The position numbers were made by a program, and so were the translations under genes. From Deltaproteobacteria bacterium (GTDB lineage: Bacteria; Myxococcota_A; Polyangia; Haliangiales; J016), in the NCBI GenBank assembly GCA_003696105.1, contig RFGE01000022.1, forward strand, positions 4,177 to 68,176: a stretch of 64,000 nucleotides of DNA. Reading direction: 5' to 3'. The notes beneath the pieces are model-generated. The model saw nothing but the letters and a program-made list of their open reading frames with translations. It was not told the origin of the DNA and did not search any database. The stretch's first letter is position 1; every line of letters starts with the position of its first letter. Shown piece after piece: positions 15,188 through 52,529 of the stretch.

Positions 15188-16690
15188 ATGGCCCCGCCGC
15201 GATCGCCGCTGCTGCCCGCCCTCGGCGATCCGCTGGTCGACCTGCTCGACGCGGCGGGCGTCGGCATCTCGATCACCGTGGACCGCGGCGATCGGCTCGA
15301 ACGCCTCTACGTCAACCGCGCGGCCGCCGACCTGCTCGGCTACGGGGTCGACGAAGTGGCCGACATGCCGCCGATGCTGCCGGTCGCCGCCGACGAGCGC
15401 GACCGCGTCGCGTTCATCGCGCGGCGCGCGCGGGACACCGGCGCGGCCCCCGCGCCGCTGACCACCGCGCTCGTCGCCCGCGACGGCCGCCGCATACCGG
15501 TCGAGCTGACGTTCGCGCGCACCGAGTACCGCGGCTTGCCCGCGACGATCGCGTTCATCCGCGACGTGACGGACCGAGCGGCGATCGCCGCGGCGCTGCG
15601 AGAGTCGGAGCACCGGTTCCGCTCGCTCGCCGACGAGGCGCCCGACTCCATCACCGTGGCCGCGGATGGCCGATTCGTGTACGCAAACCGGGCTGCGGCG
15701 GCGGCGCTCGGCTACGACGAGCCGGATGAATTGATCGGCAAACCCGTGGCCGCCATCGTCCCGTCCGACGAGCTGCCGCGCATGCGCGAACGCATGGCGC
15801 GAGCGCTCGCCGGCGAGCGACTCGGGCCGAGCGAGTACACCGGGATCCGCAAGGACGGCGGCCGCATGACGATGGAAATCTCGTCGGTGCGCGTCGCGTG
15901 GGACGGACGCCCGGCACTGCTCGGCGTCGGACGCGACGTGAGCGATCGCCGCCGGCGCCAGGAGGAGATCATCCGCGCCAGCCAGCTTGCCGCCGTCGGC
16001 CAGCTCGCCGCCGGCGTCGCCCACGAGATCAACAACCCGCTCACCTTCGTGCTGCTGAACCTCGAGCGCATCCGCCGCGAACTCGCCGCCAGCCCGCTGT
16101 CGCACTTGCAGCAGCACGTCGAAGACGTGATCGACGGAGCCGAGCGCATCCGCGCCGTCGTCGGCGACCTGCTGTCGTTTGCCCGCGCGCCCGCCGCCGG
16201 GCGCACCCCGGCGCCCGTCGATGTGGTCGCCGTGGTGGACTCGGCGCTGCGGCTCGCGGGCCACGCGCTGCGCCGGTGCGCCCGCGTCGAGCGCACCGTC
16301 GCCGCCGTGCCGCCGGTGCCGATCGACCGCGCTCGCCTCGGGCAAGTCGTGCTCAACGTGCTCCTCAACGCAGCCGACGCGCTCGACGGCCGCGATCCGG
16401 ATAGCGGTCACATCGCGGTGCGTGTCACCGAAGCGCCGCCCGGCGCGGTCGAGATCGCGATCTCCGACAACGGGCCTGGCGTCGCCGAATCCGACGTCGA
16501 CCGGGTGTTCGAGCCGTTTTTCACGACCAAGCCGGCCGGCCGGGGCACGGGCCTCGGGCTCGCGATCTGCCGCACGATCGTCGAGGCGGCCGGCGGTTCG
16601 ATCGCGCTGGACTCGCATCCGGGGACCGGCACGACGGTCCGCATTCGTCTCCCGACCGCGCGCGAACCGAAGTCGGGTGCCGGCCGCTGA
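15188..16690 (+). CDS. PAS-domain sensor histidine kinase (cytoplasmic)
   Basis: Two PAS-like modules (RDGRRIPVELTFA.., RKDGGRMTMEISS..), H-box GVAHEINNPL, HATPase_c (DNGPGV, GTGLGLAICR). Confidence 0.9.
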   Translation: MAPPRSPLLPALGDPLVDLLDAAGVGISITVDRGDRLERLYVNRAAADLLGYGVDEVADMPPMLPVAADERDRVAFIARRARDTGAAPAPLTTALVARDGRRIPVELTFARTEYRGLPATIAFIRDVTDRAAIAAALRESEHRFRSLADEAPDSITVAADGRFVYANRAAAAALGYDEPDELIGKPVAAIVPSDELPRMRERMARALAGERLGPSEYTGIRKDGGRMTMEISSVRVAWDGRPALLGVGRDVSDRRRRQEEIIRASQLAAVGQLAAGVAHEINNPLTFVLLNLERIRRELAASPLSHLQQHVEDVIDGAERIRAVVGDLLSFARAPAAGRTPAPVDVVAVVDSALRLAGHALRRCARVERTVAAVPPVPIDRARLGQVVLNVLLNAADALDGRDPDSGHIAVRVTEAPPGAVEIAISDNGPGVAESDVDRVFEPFFTTKPAGRGTGLGLAICRTIVEAAGGSIALDSHPGTGTTVRIRLPTAREPKSGAGR

Positions 16691-16698
16691 CGGCGCCG

Positions 16699-17964
16699 CT
16701 ACTTCGACGGACACGGAGGATCGCCGGACAGCGCCGGCACGGAATCCTCCGGTACGACCGCGCGGAACACGGCGCCGCGCCCGCTCAGCGGCGCGGCCCG
16801 ACCGAATGCCGCCAGCACCGCGAACCCGGCCAGACCGACGCCGCCGCACCAGTACAGCGCCGCGGCGGGCCCGTAGGACGCCGCGATCGGCAGGAATACG
16901 GCGCCGATCATGAACGAGCGCTTCGCGATGCTCTCGATGGACAGCACGGTCGCGCGGTGATCGGAACTGGCGATCTGCCGGTTGAGCAGCGGCTTGACCA
17001 GCGGCGAGTACAGGCCGGTCGCGATCGCTTGCACGAGCAACAACATCATCACCCACTCGCTGCGAACCTGGCCGAGCAACAGGAAGCTGCCGGCCAGCGC
17101 GATCAACACGCCCCACACGAGCACGTCCTCGCCGTACTGGCGGCGCAGCGCGTCGGCCTGGTGAGCGACGAACGACGCCACCGCATAGACGCCGGCGAAA
17201 ATGAACCCCACCTCCGCGTAGCCGAACGACTGGGCCTTCAGCAGCGGCTGGTAAAGGTACGCGATCGCCTTGAGCAGCGCGAACACCACAGCCGCATAGC
17301 CGATCACCCACAGCAGCGCCCGATTGCTGCGCGCGGCGCGCAACGACTCGCGCATATGGCGGAAGTAGGCGCGCGCCTCCTCGCGCGCCGGCCGCAGCGG
17401 CCGCGACACGATCGCGGCGCGCTCGCCGTCCATCAGCAACGCGACCCCGAACGCGGCTGCCGACACGGCGGCCGTCGCCAGATACGGCAGCGCAAGGTCG
17501 ATCTCCGCGAGCACACCCCCCGCCGCAAACGCCAGCGTCTGGCCGGCGAAGTGCCACGCGGACGCGCGCCCCTCGTGGTGCGCGTATTCGTCCGCGCGAC
17601 CGTTGTCGACGAGCAAGTCGAACAGGTAGGCCGAATCCGCGCCCGAGCACAGAGACATCGAGGTCGCCGCCAGCACCTCCGCGATGGCGAACGCAGCGAA
17701 GCCGTGCGCGAAGTACGCCGTGACGCACGCCGCGACCATCGCGAGTGTCCCCGCCATCATGGAGCGGCGCCGGCCAATGCGGTCGGCGAACGCGCCCGTC
17801 GGGATTTCGACGAGGATGACGACGCCGCAGTAGATCGCGCCGAGAATGGAAATCTCGCTCCACTGTAGCCCGCGCGACTCGAAGAAGTAGACGAAGATCG
17901 GCACCCACAGGTACGAGGTCGCCAGCAGCCGGAACAGGTAGAACAGGCGAAGGTCGCGAGCCAT
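16699..17964 (-). CDS. MFS transporter
   Basis: 421 aa with about 12 hydrophobic segments and the MFS loop motif GAFADRIGRRRS. The ATG overlaps the upstream stop (ATGA at 17964). Confidence 0.85.
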   Translation of the reverse strand: MARDLRLFYLFRLLATSYLWVPIFVYFFESRGLQWSEISILGAIYCGVVILVEIPTGAFADRIGRRRSMMAGTLAMVAACVTAYFAHGFAAFAIAEVLAATSMSLCSGADSAYLFDLLVDNGRADEYAHHEGRASAWHFAGQTLAFAAGGVLAEIDLALPYLATAAVSAAAFGVALLMDGERAAIVSRPLRPAREEARAYFRHMRESLRAARSNRALLWVIGYAAVVFALLKAIAYLYQPLLKAQSFGYAEVGFIFAGVYAVASFVAHQADALRRQYGEDVLVWGVLIALAGSFLLLGQVRSEWVMMLLLVQAIATGLYSPLVKPLLNRQIASSDHRATVLSIESIAKRSFMIGAVFLPIAASYGPAAALYWCGGVGLAGFAVLAAFGRAAPLSGRGAVFRAVVPEDSVPALSGDPPCPSK

Positions 17965-19340
17965 CAGCGCAGCTCCGCCGGCCGCTCGTCGGCGGTCAAG
18001 ATCAAGATCGCCTCGGCGGCGGTGATCCGGCCCACGTCGTCGCCGTCGACCAGCGCGCGCGCCAGCGGCGCGAGGTCGACCTGCGCGTCCAACCGCCGAA
18101 GGGCGATCGCGGCGTCCACCCGCAGCGCGCTCGCGCCGAGCTGCTCGACCAGCGCGTCAACCGCGCGGGTGTCCCCGAGCGCAGCCAGCGCGTGGGCCGC
18201 GCCGACGCGGTCGCCCGCGGTGAGGATGTCGGCCAGCGCGTCGCGCGCCTCGTCGTAGCCGGCGGCGCCGAGGGCCACTGCCGCGCGCGTGCGCGCAACG
18301 CGCGCCGAACCCGCGAGGGCTTCGCGCAGCACCGCGAGCCCGGCGTCGTCGCCGAGCAGCGCGAGCGCCGCGGCGGCCCCGAGCCGGTGCGTGCGCACGC
18401 GCAGCATCGCGCGCAGCGCGGTGCGGCCGGCGTCGTTGCCGAGCCGCGCGAGCGATCGCGCGGCGTCGAGGCGCACGTCGCGGCTCGGATCGCGCAACGC
18501 CGCCTCGAGCGCCGCTACGCCGCGCGCGTCGCCGGACCGGGCGAGCACGTACGCGACGCGCAGGCGCGCGGCCGGGCTCGGCTCCTCGTCGAGCCGCCGG
18601 CCGAGCGCGGCGAGCGCGTCCGGATCGCGCACGCGGGCGAGCGCGAGCGCGGCGTCGCGCGCCAGCCGAGGCGACGGCGACCGCATCAGCTCGCGCAGCG
18701 CGCCGACGGCGGCGTCGCGCAACACCGCCGGATCGACGCGCGCGTCCGCGGCCGGCGGCGGGGCGGGCTCCGGCGCCGGCGCCGGCGCGACGGGCGCATC
18801 CGTCGCGGCGGTCGCATCCGTCGGAGACGACGGCGACACCGCGTCGACGATCGCGATCGCCATGCCCCCGACGCAGACCGCCCCGGCGATCGCGAGCGCG
18901 CGGCGCTTGTTTCCGCGCCGGCCGGCCGCCGGCGACGCCGCACCGCGCTCCTCCGCGTCGATGCGCGCCTGCGCGCGCTCGTCCCACGTGTGCCCGCGCC
19001 CGACGACCGGGGCCGACACCGGTGACGCGGGCTCGTCGTCCCACAAGTCGTCGACGTCGCGCGGCGAATCGGCGACCCGCGCGACGGCCTCGTCGGCGCG
19101 CTCGTACCACGCCACGCTCATCGCGGTCTCCTCGGCGCGCGCCGGCGTGTTTTCGGCGCGCACCTCGATCGGCGGTGCGCGATCGGCGTCCGCGGCCGCG
19201 TCGCCGTCGGCGCAGGCCGCCGGTGCGCCGTCGGCACAGGCTGCCGAGCAGTACGTGTACACGTGCCCGCCTCGCACCCGCGCGACCGGCGCACGCGCGG
19301 GATCGATCGGACGCTGGCAGGTGGGACAGACGGCGGTCAC
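17964..19340 (-). CDS. TRASH-type zinc-ribbon / single-TM / HEAT (PBS-lyase-like) repeat protein
   Basis: GTG 19340 overlaps the upstream stop (GTGA). The N-terminus CPTC-x22-CSAAC fits TRASH (C-x2-C-x19-22-C-x3-C). TM segment ALAIAGAVCVGGMAIAIVDAV. The C-terminus has repeated RDP..RL.AA.ALARLGD..A..AL HEAT-like units. Confidence 0.75.
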   Translation of the reverse strand: MTAVCPTCQRPIDPARAPVARVRGGHVYTYCSAACADGAPAACADGDAAADADRAPPIEVRAENTPARAEETAMSVAWYERADEAVARVADSPRDVDDLWDDEPASPVSAPVVGRGHTWDERAQARIDAEERGAASPAAGRRGNKRRALAIAGAVCVGGMAIAIVDAVSPSSPTDATAATDAPVAPAPAPEPAPPPAADARVDPAVLRDAAVGALRELMRSPSPRLARDAALALARVRDPDALAALGRRLDEEPSPAARLRVAYVLARSGDARGVAALEAALRDPSRDVRLDAARSLARLGNDAGRTALRAMLRVRTHRLGAAAALALLGDDAGLAVLREALAGSARVARTRAAVALGAAGYDEARDALADILTAGDRVGAAHALAALGDTRAVDALVEQLGASALRVDAAIALRRLDAQVDLAPLARALVDGDDVGRITAAEAILILTADERPAELR

Positions 19341-20410
19341 GGGAACACCAACACGTTGTCGGCGCCGTGGCGCGCGATCAGGTCGTCGATGTAACGCAGC
19401 GCGTAGTCGCGCCGCGCCATCAGCGCCGCGACCTCGCTGTCGTCGAGCAACTCGTGAAACGGCCCCGGATCGTCGGCGAGCGCGGCGCGCACCGCCTCCT
19501 CGTCGAGCGCGCGCAACGCCGCCACCAGCGACCGCGAAAACTTCTGCACCTTCATCAGGTAGGAGCGGACCTTTTCCGCCCCGGCGGGCTGCCGCCCAAA
19601 CGACAAGGTGTTGTCCATGTAGTACAAAAACGACCCGTCCGGCGACGAGCGGACGTTGCCGCCGCTCCACCGATCGAGATTGTTGATCAGAAAGTCGAAC
19701 ACCACCATGTCGCTGATCTGCGCGACGAGCCGCGCCTCCCGGTACGGCACCGGCTCGCCGATGGTCAGATAGCGGTGCCAGGTCACGACGCCGTCGACGC
19801 TGTCGACCGGGTAGCCGTCGATCCTCGGCTTGGCGATGCGCGGGATCCACCAGGACAGCTCGCCGACCACCCAGCCGTCGTTCTGGATCATCTCCGCTCG
19901 CAGCCGCGGCGCAATGTAGGCGCTGTCCGGTTCCAGGTGCGACAGAATGTCGTCGACGCGGAACATGCGACCGATCGCCGGCGCCACGGTACTCAACCCG
20001 AGCAGCCGGTTGATCCGGTACGCCGCCACCTCGCGGCGCGGCACGGTCTGCCAGTTGGTCTGGCGCGGCTTGAACGCGGCGCGCGCGCCGTTGTCGAAGT
20101 CGATCCGCAGCGAGATCGACGACCCGCCGAGGTTGAACGCCACGCGGTCGATCTCGCCGGTGCGCAACGGCGCGAGCAGCTGGTCGTCCGCCACGCCGCG
20201 AAACAGGCCGAGCGCGCGGCGGACCGGGCCGAGGCTCGGCCGCTCCGGCCAGCGGATTTCGACCCGCTCGGCCGGAGCCGCGGGCGCGCGGCCGGCATGC
20301 GCCCAGCGGCCCCGAAGCTCGCGCACGCCGGCGGTCCCCGCCAGCGCGAGGCCGGCGGCGAGCGAGACCCCGACGGCGAGCTCGACGGCCACACAGCTCC
20401 CGAGGCGCAC
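19337..20410 (-). CDS. secreted Fam20/Four-jointed-like protein kinase homolog
   Basis: Signal/TM N-terminus (VAVELAVGVSLAAGLALAG). Motifs AAFKP, REVAAYRINRLLGLSTVAPAIGR, ISDMVVFDFLINNLDR and YYMDNTLSFG are collinear with the Fam20C kinase-core motifs as I recall them. Confidence 0.7.
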   Translation of the reverse strand: MRLGSCVAVELAVGVSLAAGLALAGTAGVRELRGRWAHAGRAPAAPAERVEIRWPERPSLGPVRRALGLFRGVADDQLLAPLRTGEIDRVAFNLGGSSISLRIDFDNGARAAFKPRQTNWQTVPRREVAAYRINRLLGLSTVAPAIGRMFRVDDILSHLEPDSAYIAPRLRAEMIQNDGWVVGELSWWIPRIAKPRIDGYPVDSVDGVVTWHRYLTIGEPVPYREARLVAQISDMVVFDFLINNLDRWSGGNVRSSPDGSFLYYMDNTLSFGRQPAGAEKVRSYLMKVQKFSRSLVAALRALDEEAVRAALADDPGPFHELLDDSEVAALMARRDYALRYIDDLIARHGADNVLVFP

Positions 20411-20542
20411 GCCGTCAGGGTATCACGCGGCGCGCGACGCCTCCAAATTCCGACACAAGCAAAACAGCAACAGTTTCAACGCGTTAAGCCGATGCGCGCG
20501 GCGCTGTCGGAGGGGAATGCTACGCTCCCTGCGTCGCCCGCC

Positions 20543-20755
20543 ATGCCGACGCTCAAAGACTCCATGTGTTGCATGTGCAAGGCGCCGCTTCCCGCGGGCG
20601 CGGCCTACGTGCGCTGTTCGGTGGCGTCGTGCAACTCGGGCCGCTTCAAGCTGCGGTTCTGCAGCGTCGCATGCTGGGAAGCCCACCTGCCGACCGCCCG
20701 CCACCGCAACGCCGACTACGTCCGCGTCGACCCGACCGAGGCCAACTCCGGCTGA
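20543..20755 (+). CDS. small Cys-rich (zinc-ribbon-like) protein
   Basis: 70 aa: MPTLKDSMCCMCKAPLPAGAAYVRCSVASCNSGRFKLRFCSVACWEAHLPTARHRNADY.... High-GC3 codon pattern. Alternative ATG at 20492. Divergent from the Fam20-like operon. Confidence 0.5.
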   Translation: MPTLKDSMCCMCKAPLPAGAAYVRCSVASCNSGRFKLRFCSVACWEAHLPTARHRNADYVRVDPTEANSG

Positions 20756-20800: not shown

Positions 20801-21361
20801 TCAGGGACGCGGAGCCGCCAACAGGGGCTCGACCTGGTCGGCGAGCCAGCCGTCGAGGTCGACGGCCGCCCCGCGGTGAACCGCGACGACCACGCCGCGC
20901 CGGTCGATGACGACCAGGTGCGGGATGGTCGTCACCCGGAAGGCGTCGGCGACCGCGCCATCGTCGCTGAGCACGGGGAACGTGACGCCGAGGCGCCGCG
21001 CCGCGGCCAGCGCGGCCGCGCGGCCAGCGCGGCCCTCGATGTTGACCGACAGCACGCGGAAGCCATCGCCGCGAAGGCGCCGCCAGGCCCGCTCGATCGC
21101 CGGCATCGCGCGAATGCACGGCCCGCACCAGGACGCCCAGAAGTCCACGAGCACGACATCGCCGCGGGCGTCGGCCAGCGACACGCGACCGCCGCCGTCG
21201 GCACGCGGCAGCGAAAACAGCGGCGCCATGTCTCCCGGGGCGACCGGCCGCATCGCGTGCCAGTTGCGCGCGACGTCCACCGCGCCGAACGCGGCGGTCG
21301 CGAGCGCCAGCGCGATCGCCGCCCGGCCCGCCCACCGCGCGCGGCGGCCCGGATCAGCCAC
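20801..21361 (-). CDS. TlpA/ResA-family periplasmic thiol:disulfide oxidoreductase
   Basis: Signal anchor plus VLVDFWASWCGPC (thioredoxin CxxC) and a ...TIPHLVVID motif. GTG start. Confidence 0.88.
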   Translation of the reverse strand: MADPGRRARWAGRAAIALALATAAFGAVDVARNWHAMRPVAPGDMAPLFSLPRADGGGRVSLADARGDVVLVDFWASWCGPCIRAMPAIERAWRRLRGDGFRVLSVNIEGRAGRAAALAAARRLGVTFPVLSDDGAVADAFRVTTIPHLVVIDRRGVVVAVHRGAAVDLDGWLADQVEPLLAAPRP

Positions 21362-21875
21362 GGGCGTCCCCCCGCGCGCGAGCGACGCGAATCGCGAGCG
21401 CCACCGCGCCCCCGCCCCACGCGAGCGCCGCGACTCCGGCGACGTCCGTCGCCGCCCGCGACAGCGACCCGCCCGCCAGCGCGGCGGCGAAGCCGGCGAC
21501 GAGCCGGACGAATGCGAACGGCACGTAGGCGACCGCGGCGAGGTCGAAGTCGCGGCCGACCGCGCGGCGCCGCCCCGCCGCGATGGTCACGACGCCGCCG
21601 GCAATGAACAAGAACGCCAGATCCCACCCGATCGCCCGCCCGACGACCCCGGCGGCCGCGACCACACCGGCCAAGGCCGAGTCGACCGCGCCGATCCAGG
21701 CCGCCGCCACGAGCGCGCGGACGTGCAGCGCGAACGCCGACGCCAGCAGCACGGCGGTGGCGTCCGACGACGCGCGCCCGGCGTGGGCGGGATCGTCGGC
21801 GGCCGACAGTGCCGCCGTCGGGGCGGCGAGCGCCGCGCCGATCCGCTCGGCGAACGAGGTCGGGCACCAGATCAT
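21354..21875 (-). CDS. integral membrane protein, unknown function
   Basis: 173 aa with about 5 hydrophobic segments. Overlaps the tlpA-like start by 8 nt and lies 10 nt after the upstream gene. Confidence 0.6.
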   Translation of the reverse strand: MIWCPTSFAERIGAALAAPTAALSAADDPAHAGRASSDATAVLLASAFALHVRALVAAAWIGAVDSALAGVVAAAGVVGRAIGWDLAFLFIAGGVVTIAAGRRRAVGRDFDLAAVAYVPFAFVRLVAGFAAALAGGSLSRAATDVAGVAALAWGGGAVALAIRVARARGDARG

Positions 21876-21885
21876 CGTTCCGCGG

Positions 21886-22998
21886 TCACCGGCCGCCGCG
21901 TCCGCCGGTCGACCGGGTCATGACGAGCTTCCGCGCCTGGGCCGCCAGCGCCGACGGGATGCTCTTGGACCGCGCGAGCGCGCGGATGTCCTTGTCCCGC
22001 AAGTGGGGCACGAGCCGCATCGCGATCGCCAGCGGCGTCTTCGGGTTGTTGACCAGTGCGAGCTTGCACGCGTACAGCTTGGTCCATTCGCGCTTGCGCG
22101 CAATGTAGGCGATCACTTCCTCGGACAACGCGCTGTTTCCGGCGTGTTTGACCGCTTCCATTTCGGTGACGCCGGGCGCCTTGATGGCGGCGAGCGCGAC
22201 CATCTTGTTGGAGTCGCGCACCAGCTGCGCGCGCACGAACTTGTTGCCGAGCGTCGCGAGGCGAATCTTCATCGGGATCGTCATCGCCGACAGCGGGAGG
22301 TCGCGCTCATCGCCCTCGTCTGCTGCGGCGGCGCGATCGTCGTCCGCCTCCTCGGCGGCCTGCTCCGCCGCGGCCGCGAACAGCGCGTCGGCCGCGTCGC
22401 GCCCCTCGTCAGACGGCGGGCCCGCCTTCGCCGTCGCGACCGCCGCGCGCGCGATCTCGTCCCACGCGGCGATCCCCGGCACGCGCACCTGATTGCGCAC
22501 CGCGAGTTCCACCGCCCGATCCACCGTGGACATGCGGGCGGCGCGGTTGACGTACATCGCGGCGATGATGGCCGGATGGCGCAACAGCCGCTGCTCGTTG
22601 GAGGCGATCAGGTCGACCAGGCGCTCGCCGACCGCGCCCGCGAGTTCGGCGACGGTCTCATCGGCTGTCGCCGGATTGAGCAGAATCAGCTCGAGCATCG
22701 CCTCGCGGTTCGCCAGTCGCTCGGCAAAGAAGTCGAGCACGCGCGGATCCGCTTGCGGGTTCGACAGGGCGCCGGTGAGCACCCGGTCGGGCAACTCCGT
22801 GGCCGTCTTCGCGGCCGCCTGAGCGACCGCGCCGTCCGCGTCGATCGCGAGCTGATACAAAACGGTGATCAAATCAACCGGGTTGGGCAGAGGCGCGAGG
22901 CCGCGCGCGGCCATCATCTTGATGGGCCCGGAGGCCAGCGCCTTGCGCGCAGCCTCACTGAGCCGCTCCGCTTCGATCGGTGTACGCGCAATCGCCAT
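21886..22998 (-). CDS. conserved hypothetical alpha-helical repeat protein with acidic linker
   Basis: MAIARTPIEAERLSEAARKAL.... The ATG overlaps the coaX stop (ATGA at 22998). I recognise no catalytic motif. The track ORF extends to 24099, but that part is a shadow of coaX. Confidence 0.65.
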   Translation of the reverse strand: MAIARTPIEAERLSEAARKALASGPIKMMAARGLAPLPNPVDLITVLYQLAIDADGAVAQAAAKTATELPDRVLTGALSNPQADPRVLDFFAERLANREAMLELILLNPATADETVAELAGAVGERLVDLIASNEQRLLRHPAIIAAMYVNRAARMSTVDRAVELAVRNQVRVPGIAAWDEIARAAVATAKAGPPSDEGRDAADALFAAAAEQAAEEADDDRAAAADEGDERDLPLSAMTIPMKIRLATLGNKFVRAQLVRDSNKMVALAAIKAPGVTEMEAVKHAGNSALSEEVIAYIARKREWTKLYACKLALVNNPKTPLAIAMRLVPHLRDKDIRALARSKSIPSALAAQARKLVMTRSTGGRGGR

Positions 22999-23768
22999 CA
23001 GCGGTTCCTCTCGAACAAGATCTTCAATCCGCGGAGCGTCAGCAGCGGATCGACCTCGCGGATCGCGCGCGACGCGCCGGCGATCAGTCGCGCGAGCCCG
23101 CCGGTCGCAAGGCAATAGGGGTCGAAGTCCACCTCGGCGGCGATGCGGTCGACCACGGCGTCGACCATCCCGGCATACCCGTAATACAGGCCCGACTGCA
23201 TCGACGTCACAGGCGTGCGCCCGACCGCGCGCTCCGGCTTGACGATCTCCACCCGCGGCAGCTTGGCCGCCCGGCGGTACAGCGCTTCGGCGCTGATGAG
23301 AATGCCCGGCGCGATCACCCCGCCGAGGTACTCGCCCTTCGGCGTGACCACGTCCCACGTCGTCGCGGTGCCGAAGTCGACGCACACGAGGCCGCGGCGA
23401 TGTTTGTCGAACGCCGCCACCGCGTTGGCGATGCGGTCGGCGCCTACCTCGCGCGGATTCTCGTACAGGATCGGCATGCCGGTCTTGATCCCGGGACCGA
23501 CCACCATCGGCTCGATGCCGAGGTGGCGGGAAAACAGCCGCACGACCGCGTGCAGCGCGGGCGGAACGACCGACGCGACGATGCCGTGGCTCACCGCATG
23601 CCAGTCGCGGCCGTGCAGCGCGAACAGTTGTTGGACGAGCACGGCGTACTCGTCCGAGGTGCGGTTGGCCTCCGTCGCGAGCCGCCAGTGGTCGACGAGT
23701 TCGTCGCCCTCGTAGAGGCCGAACACCGTGTTCGTGTTGCCGACGTCGACCGCGAGCAAATTGGCCAT
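22998..23768 (-). CDS. coaX: type III pantothenate kinase
   Basis: MANLLAVDVGNTNTVFGLY...VDFGTATTWD...GPGI are CoaX motifs. 256 aa. Confidence 0.93.
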   Translation of the reverse strand: MANLLAVDVGNTNTVFGLYEGDELVDHWRLATEANRTSDEYAVLVQQLFALHGRDWHAVSHGIVASVVPPALHAVVRLFSRHLGIEPMVVGPGIKTGMPILYENPREVGADRIANAVAAFDKHRRGLVCVDFGTATTWDVVTPKGEYLGGVIAPGILISAEALYRRAAKLPRVEIVKPERAVGRTPVTSMQSGLYYGYAGMVDAVVDRIAAEVDFDPYCLATGGLARLIAGASRAIREVDPLLTLRGLKILFERNR

Positions 23769-24687: not shown

Positions 24688-26232
<1,545 letters not shown>

Positions 26233-52409: not shown

Positions 52410-52447
52410 CCGCCGCGCGCGGAAACGAATGCGGCGAATCGGGCCGG

Positions 52448-52529
<82 letters not shown>

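Follow-up and report, generated by a model that had tools for sequence, protein, structure and literature searches.

A Fam20-like kinase gene next to genes for a zinc-ribbon HEAT-repeat protein and an MFS transporter in Myxococcota

Introduction

The animal Fam20 proteins include the Golgi casein kinase Fam20C, the pseudokinase Fam20A and the xylosylkinase Fam20B. Here we analyse a bacterial relative encoded in a 64-kb stretch of DNA (the window, about 73% GC throughout) from contig RFGE01000022.1 of a Deltaproteobacteria bacterium. Window positions 16699-20410 hold, on the minus strand, three consecutive and tightly packed open reading frames (ORFs): one for the Fam20-like kinase, one for a protein with a zinc ribbon, a transmembrane helix and HEAT repeats (the HEAT protein), and one for a transporter of the major facilitator superfamily (MFS). 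A preliminary description of this DNA had seen in them an extracytoplasmic phosphorylation module, and all three ORFs were found at the coordinates and on the strand that it gave.

The 2018 study 'Structure and evolution of the Fam20 kinases' (PMC5865150) covered animal genomes only, followed the glycan-kinase form back to sponges and left prokaryotes unmentioned, and a 2021 Fam20 review is equally silent on prokaryotic homologues. Contributions of Myxococcota to the endomembrane functions of eukaryotes have been discussed repeatedly (2026 preprint); in one sentence, that preprint counts FAM20B as one of up to five that are possible, with a phylogenetic signal that is not always unequivocal. 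The sole characterised bacterial kinases described as Fam20C-like are the CotH spore-coat kinases of Bacillus (cited in PMC12189002), which according to that review lack a DFG-type metal-binding motif. Our full-text literature searches on Fam20 in bacteria brought up no account of such an enzyme from a bacterium; together with the silence of the 2018 paper and the 2021 review, this fits the earlier statement that bacterial kinases of this type are so far uncharacterised.

Set beside the animal enzymes, the window kinase has in common with them sequence homology over both lobes and the same predicted fold, the FKP lysine, the helix-C glutamate, the xDR catalytic loop and the DN metal-binding motif, and an N-terminal signal or anchor that would deliver it outside the cytoplasm. 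Unlike them it is bacterial, from a family seen so far in Myxococcota only, and has a core of about 290 residues with shorter loops. It also lacks the glutamate of the Kb3-Ka3 loop, the xylose-binding histidine (a tryptophan takes its place) and the conserved disulfides, it retains a transmembrane helix with an invariant glutamate, and its HEAT and MFS partners have no animal equivalent. With CotH it shares an atypical bacterial kinase fold related to Fam20C. CotH acts on a cell-surface structure, and it does so in the mother-cell cytoplasm, not in the periplasm. Unlike CotH, the window kinase keeps an invariant D266-N267 metal-binding pair.

With moderate confidence, we read the product of the first gene as a membrane-tethered periplasmic kinase that would act on a protein target, with the HEAT protein as docking partner or substrate and as relay, and with the MFS protein moving a small molecule. 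The evidence for the kinase itself is given first, then that for its partners and its genomic setting, and the alternatives are weighed thereafter.

Results

Fam20 homology and predicted fold of the kinase

By sequence, by profile and by predicted fold, the 357-aa protein is a real homologue of the Fam20 superfamily. The Pfam Fam20C profile (PF06702) matched it at 37.6 bits, above the gathering (GA) score of 26.8, with E=2.5e-9; the same profile matched 39 of 52 close relatives, which matched no other family. When compared with all PDB sequences by phmmer, the protein gave significant matches only to Fam20 proteins (human FAM20C, E=3.5e-11; FAM20A, 2.9e-10; zebrafish Fam20C, 6e-9; the hydra xylosylkinase, a Fam20B, 8.6e-6), in alignments made of separate stretches over the N-lobe and the C-lobe. 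A profile built from the 52 relatives raised the FAM20C match to E=1.7e-16. Four motifs given as Fam20 hallmarks in the preliminary description are all present and collinear (AAFKP at residues 111-115, EVAAYRINRLLGLSTVAPAIGR at 127-148, DMVVFDFLINNLDR at 234-247 and MDNTLSFG at 265-272), and HMMER pairs each of them with the corresponding stretch of human FAM20C, for example AAFKP with ALFKP; as the Pfam and PDB E-values indicate, this agreement goes far beyond chance.

The predicted structure points the same way. An AlphaFold2 model built on the alignment of the 52 relatives reached a mean pLDDT of 90.3, and when it was compared with the PDB by Foldseek, ranks 1-28 were all Fam20A, Fam20B or Fam20C chains (E from 3e-14 to 2e-9, TM-score 0.5-0.63). 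The next matches, the lipid kinases PI4KII (E=2.5e-6) and VPS34, were about eight orders of magnitude weaker, so that the nearest solved fold is that of Fam20 and not an unrelated one. Many of these bacterial proteins already bear an automatic PF06702 label in public data, and the homology itself is therefore already visible to routine annotation.

Two other kinase families were considered as a home for the protein. HipA/HipA_2 profiles matched neither the window kinase nor its 51 close relatives; HipA_2 matches appeared in 10 of 30 members of a distant paralogous clade. With HipA/HipA_2 and with PI3/PI4-kinase-like proteins the kinase shares the catalytic-loop pattern (G/N)xDRxxxN and a distant similarity of fold (PI4KII), and it matches the SCO1664 family (TIGR03843) with E=1.2e-8, far below the 172-bit cut-off of that family. 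Unlike the Fam20-like family, however, HipA and the PI3/PI4-kinase-like proteins are cytoplasmic and carry no export signal, and the matches to them are much weaker than those to Fam20. Membership of the CotH family (PF08757) was also rejected: its Pfam profile gave nothing at E<=1, and the top 50 Foldseek matches include no CotH structure.

Conservation of the catalytic residues

The 52 sequences of an alignment (A1, mean column identity 45%) all agree at K114, E127, D239, N244, R247, N252, D266 and N267, and at least 90% of them have D246. Alignment to FAM20C equates K114 with the ATP-binding lysine of the FKP motif, E127 with the helix-C glutamate, D246 with the catalytic aspartate of DRH and D266 with the metal-binding aspartate of DN(G). 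The catalytic residues are kept in the paralogous clade too. This pattern suggests a catalytically competent member of the Fam20 superfamily, whose enzymatic activity we infer from the conserved residues.

N-terminal anchor and probable export

The signal or transmembrane N-terminus of the preliminary description is there as a hydrophobic stretch (Table 1). Among the 52 relatives L3 and Glu10 are invariant and R2 and C6 nearly so, and the anchor helix with its invariant Glu10 is kept in every synteny group (see below), including loci without HEAT and MFS genes. An invariant glutamate within a transmembrane helix is unusual for a mere signal anchor. The idea that Glu10 contacts the helices of the HEAT or MFS protein is not supported, as the residue is equally conserved where both genes are absent. 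A lipoprotein reading of Cys6 could be ruled out, since the residue stands at position 6 with no hydrophobic region before it and the helix comes after.

The strongest evidence for an extracytoplasmic role comes from the paralogous clade, whose members are 31-36% identical to the window protein (E from 1e-30 to 1e-41). Here the transmembrane helix is replaced by Sec signal peptides (AxA-Q; ...ASAQ/P...) or lipoboxes: an N-terminal signal was found in 28 of 32 full-length members and is lipobox-like in 10 of them, indicating that the Fam20-like family is exported. Moreover, the transmembrane-anchored relatives (n=84) have a mean net charge of +2.3 before the helix and -0.5 after it, a bias that favours an N-in/C-out orientation. 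The kinase is thus probably held in the inner membrane by its N-terminal helix, with its domain facing the periplasm. The earlier word 'secreted' is backed by the conserved helix and by the classical signals of the paralogues; the flank charges of the window protein itself are ambiguous, and for this protein export is a prediction.

The HEAT-repeat partner protein

The second protein begins with a Cys4 zinc ribbon, its most conserved part, for which the consensus CPxCxxxIDPxRAPVARVRGGxVVTFCSxxC was found in 42 of the 49 homologues scanned; the others lack the motif or are apparently truncated at the N-terminus. The cysteine spacing is the one given in the preliminary description, which had called the ribbon a TRASH domain, but membership of the TRASH/YHS profiles is sub-threshold: Pfam YHS matched the whole protein with E=0.22 and the isolated segment with E=0.0037 and 17.7 bits, against a cut-off of 30.3.

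A disordered linker separates the ribbon from the single transmembrane helix. In the homologues the net charge is +2 to +5 before this helix and about -1 after it, which suggests that the N-terminus is inside. This would place the ribbon in the cytoplasm and leave the HEAT repeats, like the kinase domain, on the periplasmic side of the membrane. Directly after the helix an alignment of the homologues (A3) has the segment AVSPS(T/S)P(S/T)D(V/A), followed by a linker rich in Pro and Ala; this juxtamembrane AVSPSxPxD segment is predicted to be periplasmic and is a candidate modification site. The repeats themselves were matched by Pfam HEAT_2 in four stretches (E=2.1e-20), by HEAT_PBS (E=1.3e-6) and by alphaRep/HEAT proteins of the PDB (E down to 8e-34). 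One transmembrane helix and about eight HEAT repeats had been predicted, and the AlphaFold2 model, with 16 helices forming eight hairpins, agrees. The family is small, with 54 homologues of common architecture, and every one inspected adjoins a kinase.

In its predicted layout of cytoplasmic Cys4 ribbon, one transmembrane helix and periplasmic domain, the HEAT protein is comparable to bitopic zinc-binding regulators such as the zinc-binding anti-sigma (ZAS) factors. Unlike these, it has no HxxxCxxC ZAS motif and no adjacent sigma-factor gene, and its periplasmic part is a HEAT solenoid.

The MFS transporter

The identification of the third gene as an MFS transporter was borne out by the MFS_1 profile (66.8 bits against a cut-off of 33.4). 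Its best matches beyond that are weak and are to efflux pumps of the DHA1 type (drug/H+ antiporters), namely the Tet(A) family with 37 bits and NorA with E=0.002. All NCBIfam matches fall far below their own cut-offs, so no subfamily could be assigned.

Layout of the operon and its neighbours

The kinase stop and the GTG start of the HEAT gene overlap by four nucleotides (GTGA), as had been described. Between the HEAT and MFS genes the preliminary description had given an ATGA overlap, where the sequence actually reads TGATG, with one shared nucleotide at 17964. These start/stop overlaps imply co-translation of the three genes. Upstream, the operon is bounded by an opposite-strand small gene, and downstream by a PAS histidine-kinase gene that converges on it and has its end at 16690, so that here the three genes form a transcription unit of their own, separate from the co-directional thioredoxin gene, in line with the single unit proposed earlier. 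A scan of the intergenic region at 20411-20542 for sigma-70 consensus sites found none, which is uninformative in a myxobacterial genome of 73% GC. Terminator-like matches numbered four, all within coding sequence and near the shuffled expectation.

The kinase protein is 100% identical to a hypothetical protein deposited from a 'Deltaproteobacteria bacterium' metagenome-assembled genome. The deposited annotation has 351 aa and begins with MAVELAV, 6 codons downstream of the GTG at 20410 (window 20393-20410). The family alignment keeps an N-terminus of the form M/V-R-L-x-x-C/Y-h-h-x-E (MRLGxC), which supports the longer form that starts at the GTG. Contamination or a recent transfer from a eukaryote was ruled out, considering that the base composition equals that of the flanks and that the same chromosomal block is found in dozens of species; the diversity of the bacterial family likewise counts against a recent transfer from animals.

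Table 1. Positions in the 64-kb window of the genes and features discussed in the text
Feature	Window position	Strand	Details
Fam20-like kinase gene	19337-20410	-	357 aa, GTG start
Kinase, N-terminal transmembrane anchor, residues 5-28	20327-20398	-	Kyte-Doolittle hydropathy up to 2.1; Glu10 codon 20381-20383
Kinase domain, residues ~68-357	19340-20209	-	K114 20069-20071; E127 20030-20032; D246/R247/N252 19655-19675; D266/N267 19610-19615
Zinc-ribbon/transmembrane/HEAT-repeat protein gene	17964-19340	-	458 aa, GTG start
HEAT protein, Cys4 zinc ribbon C-x2-C-x22-C-x3-C, residues 5-35	19236-19328	-	Cys5, 8, 31, 35; TRASH/YHS/FCS-like, predicted cytoplasmic
HEAT protein, single transmembrane helix, residues 148-168	18837-18899	-	positive-charge cluster before helix
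HEAT protein, AVSPS(T/S)P(S/T)D(V/A) segment, residues 169-180	18800-18836	-	directly after transmembrane helix
HEAT protein, eight HEAT/PBS-lyase-type hairpins, residues 204-448	17997-18731	-	AlphaFold2: 16 helices, pLDDT >95
MFS transporter gene	16699-17964	-	421 aa, ATG start; MFS_1 E=2e-18
Divergent intergenic region, 132 bp	20411-20542		locally AT-richer stretch; presumed kinase-operon promoter region
70-aa two-zinc finger gene	20543-20755	+	divergent from kinase; in the 390-bp 'gap' between thioredoxin and kinase
TlpA/ResA-like membrane-anchored thioredoxin gene	20801-21361	-	AhpC-TSA E=8e-23, Redoxin E=2e-20
Upstream block	21354-23768	-	coaX, 364-aa helical protein, 173-aa membrane protein, TlpA-like thioredoxin
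Response-regulator/GAF/HD-domain gene	~24700-26232	+	beyond coaX
PAS-PAS-HisKA-HATPase histidine kinase gene	15188-16690	+	between MFS and rimO; 8 bp separates stops
tRNA-Leu(AAG)	52446-52529	-	sole RNA gene in window by ARAGORN and Rfam

Distribution of the family and synteny

An exhaustive profile search over 1.84 billion cluster representatives returned 1920 kinase-family clusters at E<=1e-3, 840 at E<=1e-10 and at least 322 at E<=1e-30. In an alignment-based taxonomic scan of one genome per GTDB species, relatives were present in 251 species genomes, and the best 80 of the 251 were all from Haliangium, Kofleriaceae, Polyangia or 'Myxococcales'. The paralogous clade, too, comes from Myxococcota (Sandaracinaceae and Polyangiales, for example). 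As far as sampled, these sequences point to a large, exported Fam20-like family that is confined to Myxococcota, mainly to the class Polyangia.

For synteny, 86 loci were searched by tblastn with nine window proteins; three duplicates were set aside for the group counts, which refer to 61 non-redundant species-level loci whose sequence runs on for at least 3 kb beyond the kinase on its downstream side. HEAT and then MFS follow the kinase in 25 of the 61, a group from the Haliangium/Kofleriaceae lineage that includes the cultured Haliangium ochraceum, so the order seen in the window recurs in other genomes. MFS alone follows in nine loci, HEAT alone in three, and neither in 24, most of which have rimO within about 60-100 bp. 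The triad is a real, translationally coupled module, lineage-specific and not universal in the kinase family.

The block common to these genomes runs coaX, 364-aa helical protein, small membrane protein, TlpA-like thioredoxin, [kinase], ..., rimO, PALP enzyme; 47 of 74 loci have the thioredoxin just upstream of the kinase. Neither the 364-aa helical protein nor the 173-aa membrane protein has a Pfam match. In Haliangium (L005 2203-3351) the membrane protein and the thioredoxin are apparently fused into one gene of 374-382 aa. Beyond coaX, the opposite-strand response-regulator/GAF/HD-domain gene is conserved in several genomes (L001 696-2276, L002 2138-3685, L003 830-2347). At one Kofleriaceae locus (L006 4406-7600) three opposite-strand genes, among them one for a DUF6748/Cys-rich protein, lie between thioredoxin and kinase; with this type of insertion the kinase-HEAT-MFS trio is intact, its stops and starts still overlapping. 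At the other end, most related loci have rimO about 100-200 bp after MFS on the same strand, which suggests that the PAS histidine-kinase gene of the window is an insertion specific to this genome.

The kinase of the paralogous clade (L087 6001-7038, L088 6001-6960, L089 6001-6966) has another setting, which is likewise conserved: before it come a CcmC-like gene for cytochrome c assembly, one or two tiny ORFs and often an acyl-CoA dehydrogenase gene, and after it a gene for a protein of about 223 aa, with a HATPase_c domain in two of the three loci. With the TlpA-like thioredoxin in the first clade and the CcmC-like gene in the second, both clades adjoin genes for periplasmic redox functions or cytochrome maturation. 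A Rosetta-stone search for fusions found ten longer relatives of the kinase, all without additional Pfam domains. A defence-system reading of the locus was discarded, as PADLOC recognised neither the kinase nor the MFS protein nor the small protein and returned just a generic HEAT-ARM hit for the HEAT protein.

A small zinc-finger gene beside the kinase

The 70-aa two-zinc finger gene is absent from the preliminary description. Tblastn placed it directly upstream of the kinase gene at 52 of 81 loci, with E=1e-15 to 1e-22; 19 of these copies share the strand of the kinase and 33 run the other way. As a neighbour of the kinase it is about as frequent as HEAT/MFS, but it is spread over all synteny groups, and 17 of the 24 loci with neither of those genes have it. 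Eight ligands are invariant in its product (C9, C12, C25, C30, C40, C44, H48 and H54), and Pfam zf-FCS and zf-MYND matched it below threshold, so that it is MYND/FCS-like but could be assigned to no family. An hhalign comparison with the zinc ribbon of the HEAT protein (E=6.5e-6, match probability 85%) suggests that the two are distantly related.

Discussion

A possible mechanism

In the reading that we favour, the kinase would transfer phosphate from a nucleotide triphosphate, with the help of a divalent metal, to a protein target outside the cytoplasm. The periplasmic part of the HEAT protein may serve as its docking partner, its substrate or both, the candidate site being the juxtamembrane segment rich in S/T-P, and the zinc ribbon at the other end of that protein might pass the resulting state to the cytoplasm. 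The MFS protein would export a small molecule needed by the reaction, possibly the phosphate donor. Both the donor and the substrate of the kinase are ones that we infer.

A number of observations weigh against this reading, and they are taken here together with the alternatives on which they bear. The biggest conceptual obstacle is the donor: the periplasm is generally regarded as free of ATP, so a phosphate donor there has to be postulated. The kinase of the window is moreover an outlier in its family as regards the flanks of the helix, with one Arg before it and four Arg and one Glu after it, and these flanks weakly favour the opposite topology for this particular protein. Its domain contains no cysteines, and among 84 relatives the mature domain has none in 47, one in 36 and two in 1; with at most one cysteine in 83 of the 84, the disulfides of animal Fam20 are absent. 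If the domain were cytoplasmic (N-out) and used cytoplasmic ATP, its likeness to the secreted kinases being one of fold only, the more positive C-flank and the lack of disulfides would be accounted for and the problem of periplasmic ATP would vanish. We regard this as distinctly unlikely, given that the homologous proteins of the second clade carry cleavable Sec or lipoprotein signals, that the charge bias of the family as a whole favours N-in/C-out, and that the large domain of the co-translated HEAT partner is predicted to be exposed to the periplasm.

A second difficulty concerns catalysis. The glutamate of the Kb3-Ka3 loop (human Glu306, ceFam20 Glu213) forms a Fam20-specific ion pair that is essential for catalysis, and its replacement by Gln contributes to the inactivity of the pseudokinase FAM20A; the canonical helix-C glutamate is ceFam20 Glu218 (PMC5865150). 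This loop glutamate has no bacterial counterpart: in the HMMER alignment, uncertain as it is in the loop, the FAM20C segment is an insertion that the bacterial protein lacks, and between K114 and E127, where the loop is short, the alignment of the 52 sequences shows no acidic position that is conserved. E127 pairs with the canonical helix-C glutamate (ceFam20 Glu218), not with Glu306. One could accordingly suppose that the protein is a non-catalytic pseudokinase or binding protein, missing the same residue whose exchange helps to silence FAM20A. This seems to us highly improbable, as the ATP-binding lysine and helix-C glutamate, like the catalytic Asp/Arg/Asn and the metal-binding Asp-Asn, show little or no variation among the 52 relatives and are kept in the paralogous clade.

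The same departures bear on the substrate. In the hydra enzyme, His301 of the DRH motif and the Tyr148-Asp152 loop (Tyr-Glu-Gly-Tyr-Asp) contact xylose (PMC5865150). In the bacterial family the histidine is replaced by W248, conserved in at least 90% of the sequences, and the sugar-binding Kb3-Ka3 loop is shortened, which is not the Fam20B type. Judged by these residues, the kinase is neither Fam20C-like nor Fam20B-like in its substrate determinants and looks like a stripped-down, separate branch.

The main rival to a protein kinase is an envelope kinase for a glycan, a lipid or another small molecule, with the HEAT protein as scaffold and the MFS protein moving substrate or product, which we treat as a tentative but serious possibility. 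The earliest-branching animal Fam20 enzymes, of sponge and hydra, are xylose kinases and not protein kinases (PMC5865150), and the preprint of 2026 has Myxococcota as a possible sister group of FAM20B. The next structural neighbours after Fam20 are the lipid kinases PI4KII and VPS34, the partial match to the PI3/4-kinase-like family TIGR03843 (see above) points in the same direction, and the members of the bacterial family are anchored to membranes by a transmembrane helix or a lipobox. The genomic setting can also be read in this way, with the kinase in a conserved housekeeping block and 24 of the 61 loci without a gene for a protein partner. At the same time, no genes for glycan or lipid synthesis are adjacent, the nearly invariant W248 and the shortened loop speak against a xylose-type site, and in pairwise comparison with the kinase FAM20C/A (E about 1e-11 to 1e-10) score better than the xylosylkinase (8.6e-6).

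The third set of difficulties lies in the distribution of the partners. Of the 61 loci, 24 have neither a HEAT nor an MFS gene beside the kinase and 12 have just one of the two; the family as a whole therefore cannot require either one as substrate or as supplier of the donor. The 'dedicated' partner or substrate and transporter of the preliminary description is accordingly too strong a term for the family. The split of the loci into four groups could mean that these are neighbours and not a functional module, the kinase doing a housekeeping job in the envelope by itself and HEAT and MFS having been inserted before rimO in one lineage. The N-terminal helix with its invariant Glu in every synteny group, and the conserved order of the housekeeping genes on both sides (coaX ... 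rimO, PALP), would agree with this. We think it doubtful, since the start/stop overlaps imply co-translation, the trio remains intact where other genes part it from the upstream block, the small HEAT family was found in the survey solely beside the kinase, and the predicted topology puts the HEAT repeats and the kinase domain into one compartment.

Finally, the MFS protein has no specific similarity to any nucleotide transporter, either by NCBIfam or in the similarity comparisons. The animal vesicular nucleotide transporter (VNUT) is a member of the MFS, and a role as nucleotide supplier is an attractive idea, but one that specific similarity does not support and that is inapplicable to loci without an adjacent MFS gene. 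The boldest version of our reading, a long shot, would have Polyangia carry out ATP-dependent phosphorylation in the periplasm, with the MFS protein as a VNUT-like nucleotide exporter, the kinase acting on the S/T-P segment or the solenoid of the HEAT protein, the ribbon and the 70-aa zinc finger signalling inward, and the eukaryotic secretory-pathway kinases descending from this prokaryotic family, itself no acquisition from animals.

Significance

What appears to be new here is an exported, large family, confined to Myxococcota as sampled and structurally unlike animal Fam20, together with its context of the triad and the zinc-finger gene. Because the operon is present in the cultured and fully sequenced Haliangium ochraceum, activity, topology and substrates can be tested directly, and the soluble kinase domain, being free of cysteines, should be easy to express. 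Activity in the periplasm, if there is any, would challenge the assumption that nucleotide-driven phosphorylation does not take place there and would make the MFS protein a candidate exporter of the donor. More generally, a large exported Fam20-like family in Myxococcota would shift the origin of the Fam20 family, or an ancient transfer, into bacteria, and it bears both on the origin of secretory-pathway kinases and on bacterial phosphorylation outside the cytoplasm.

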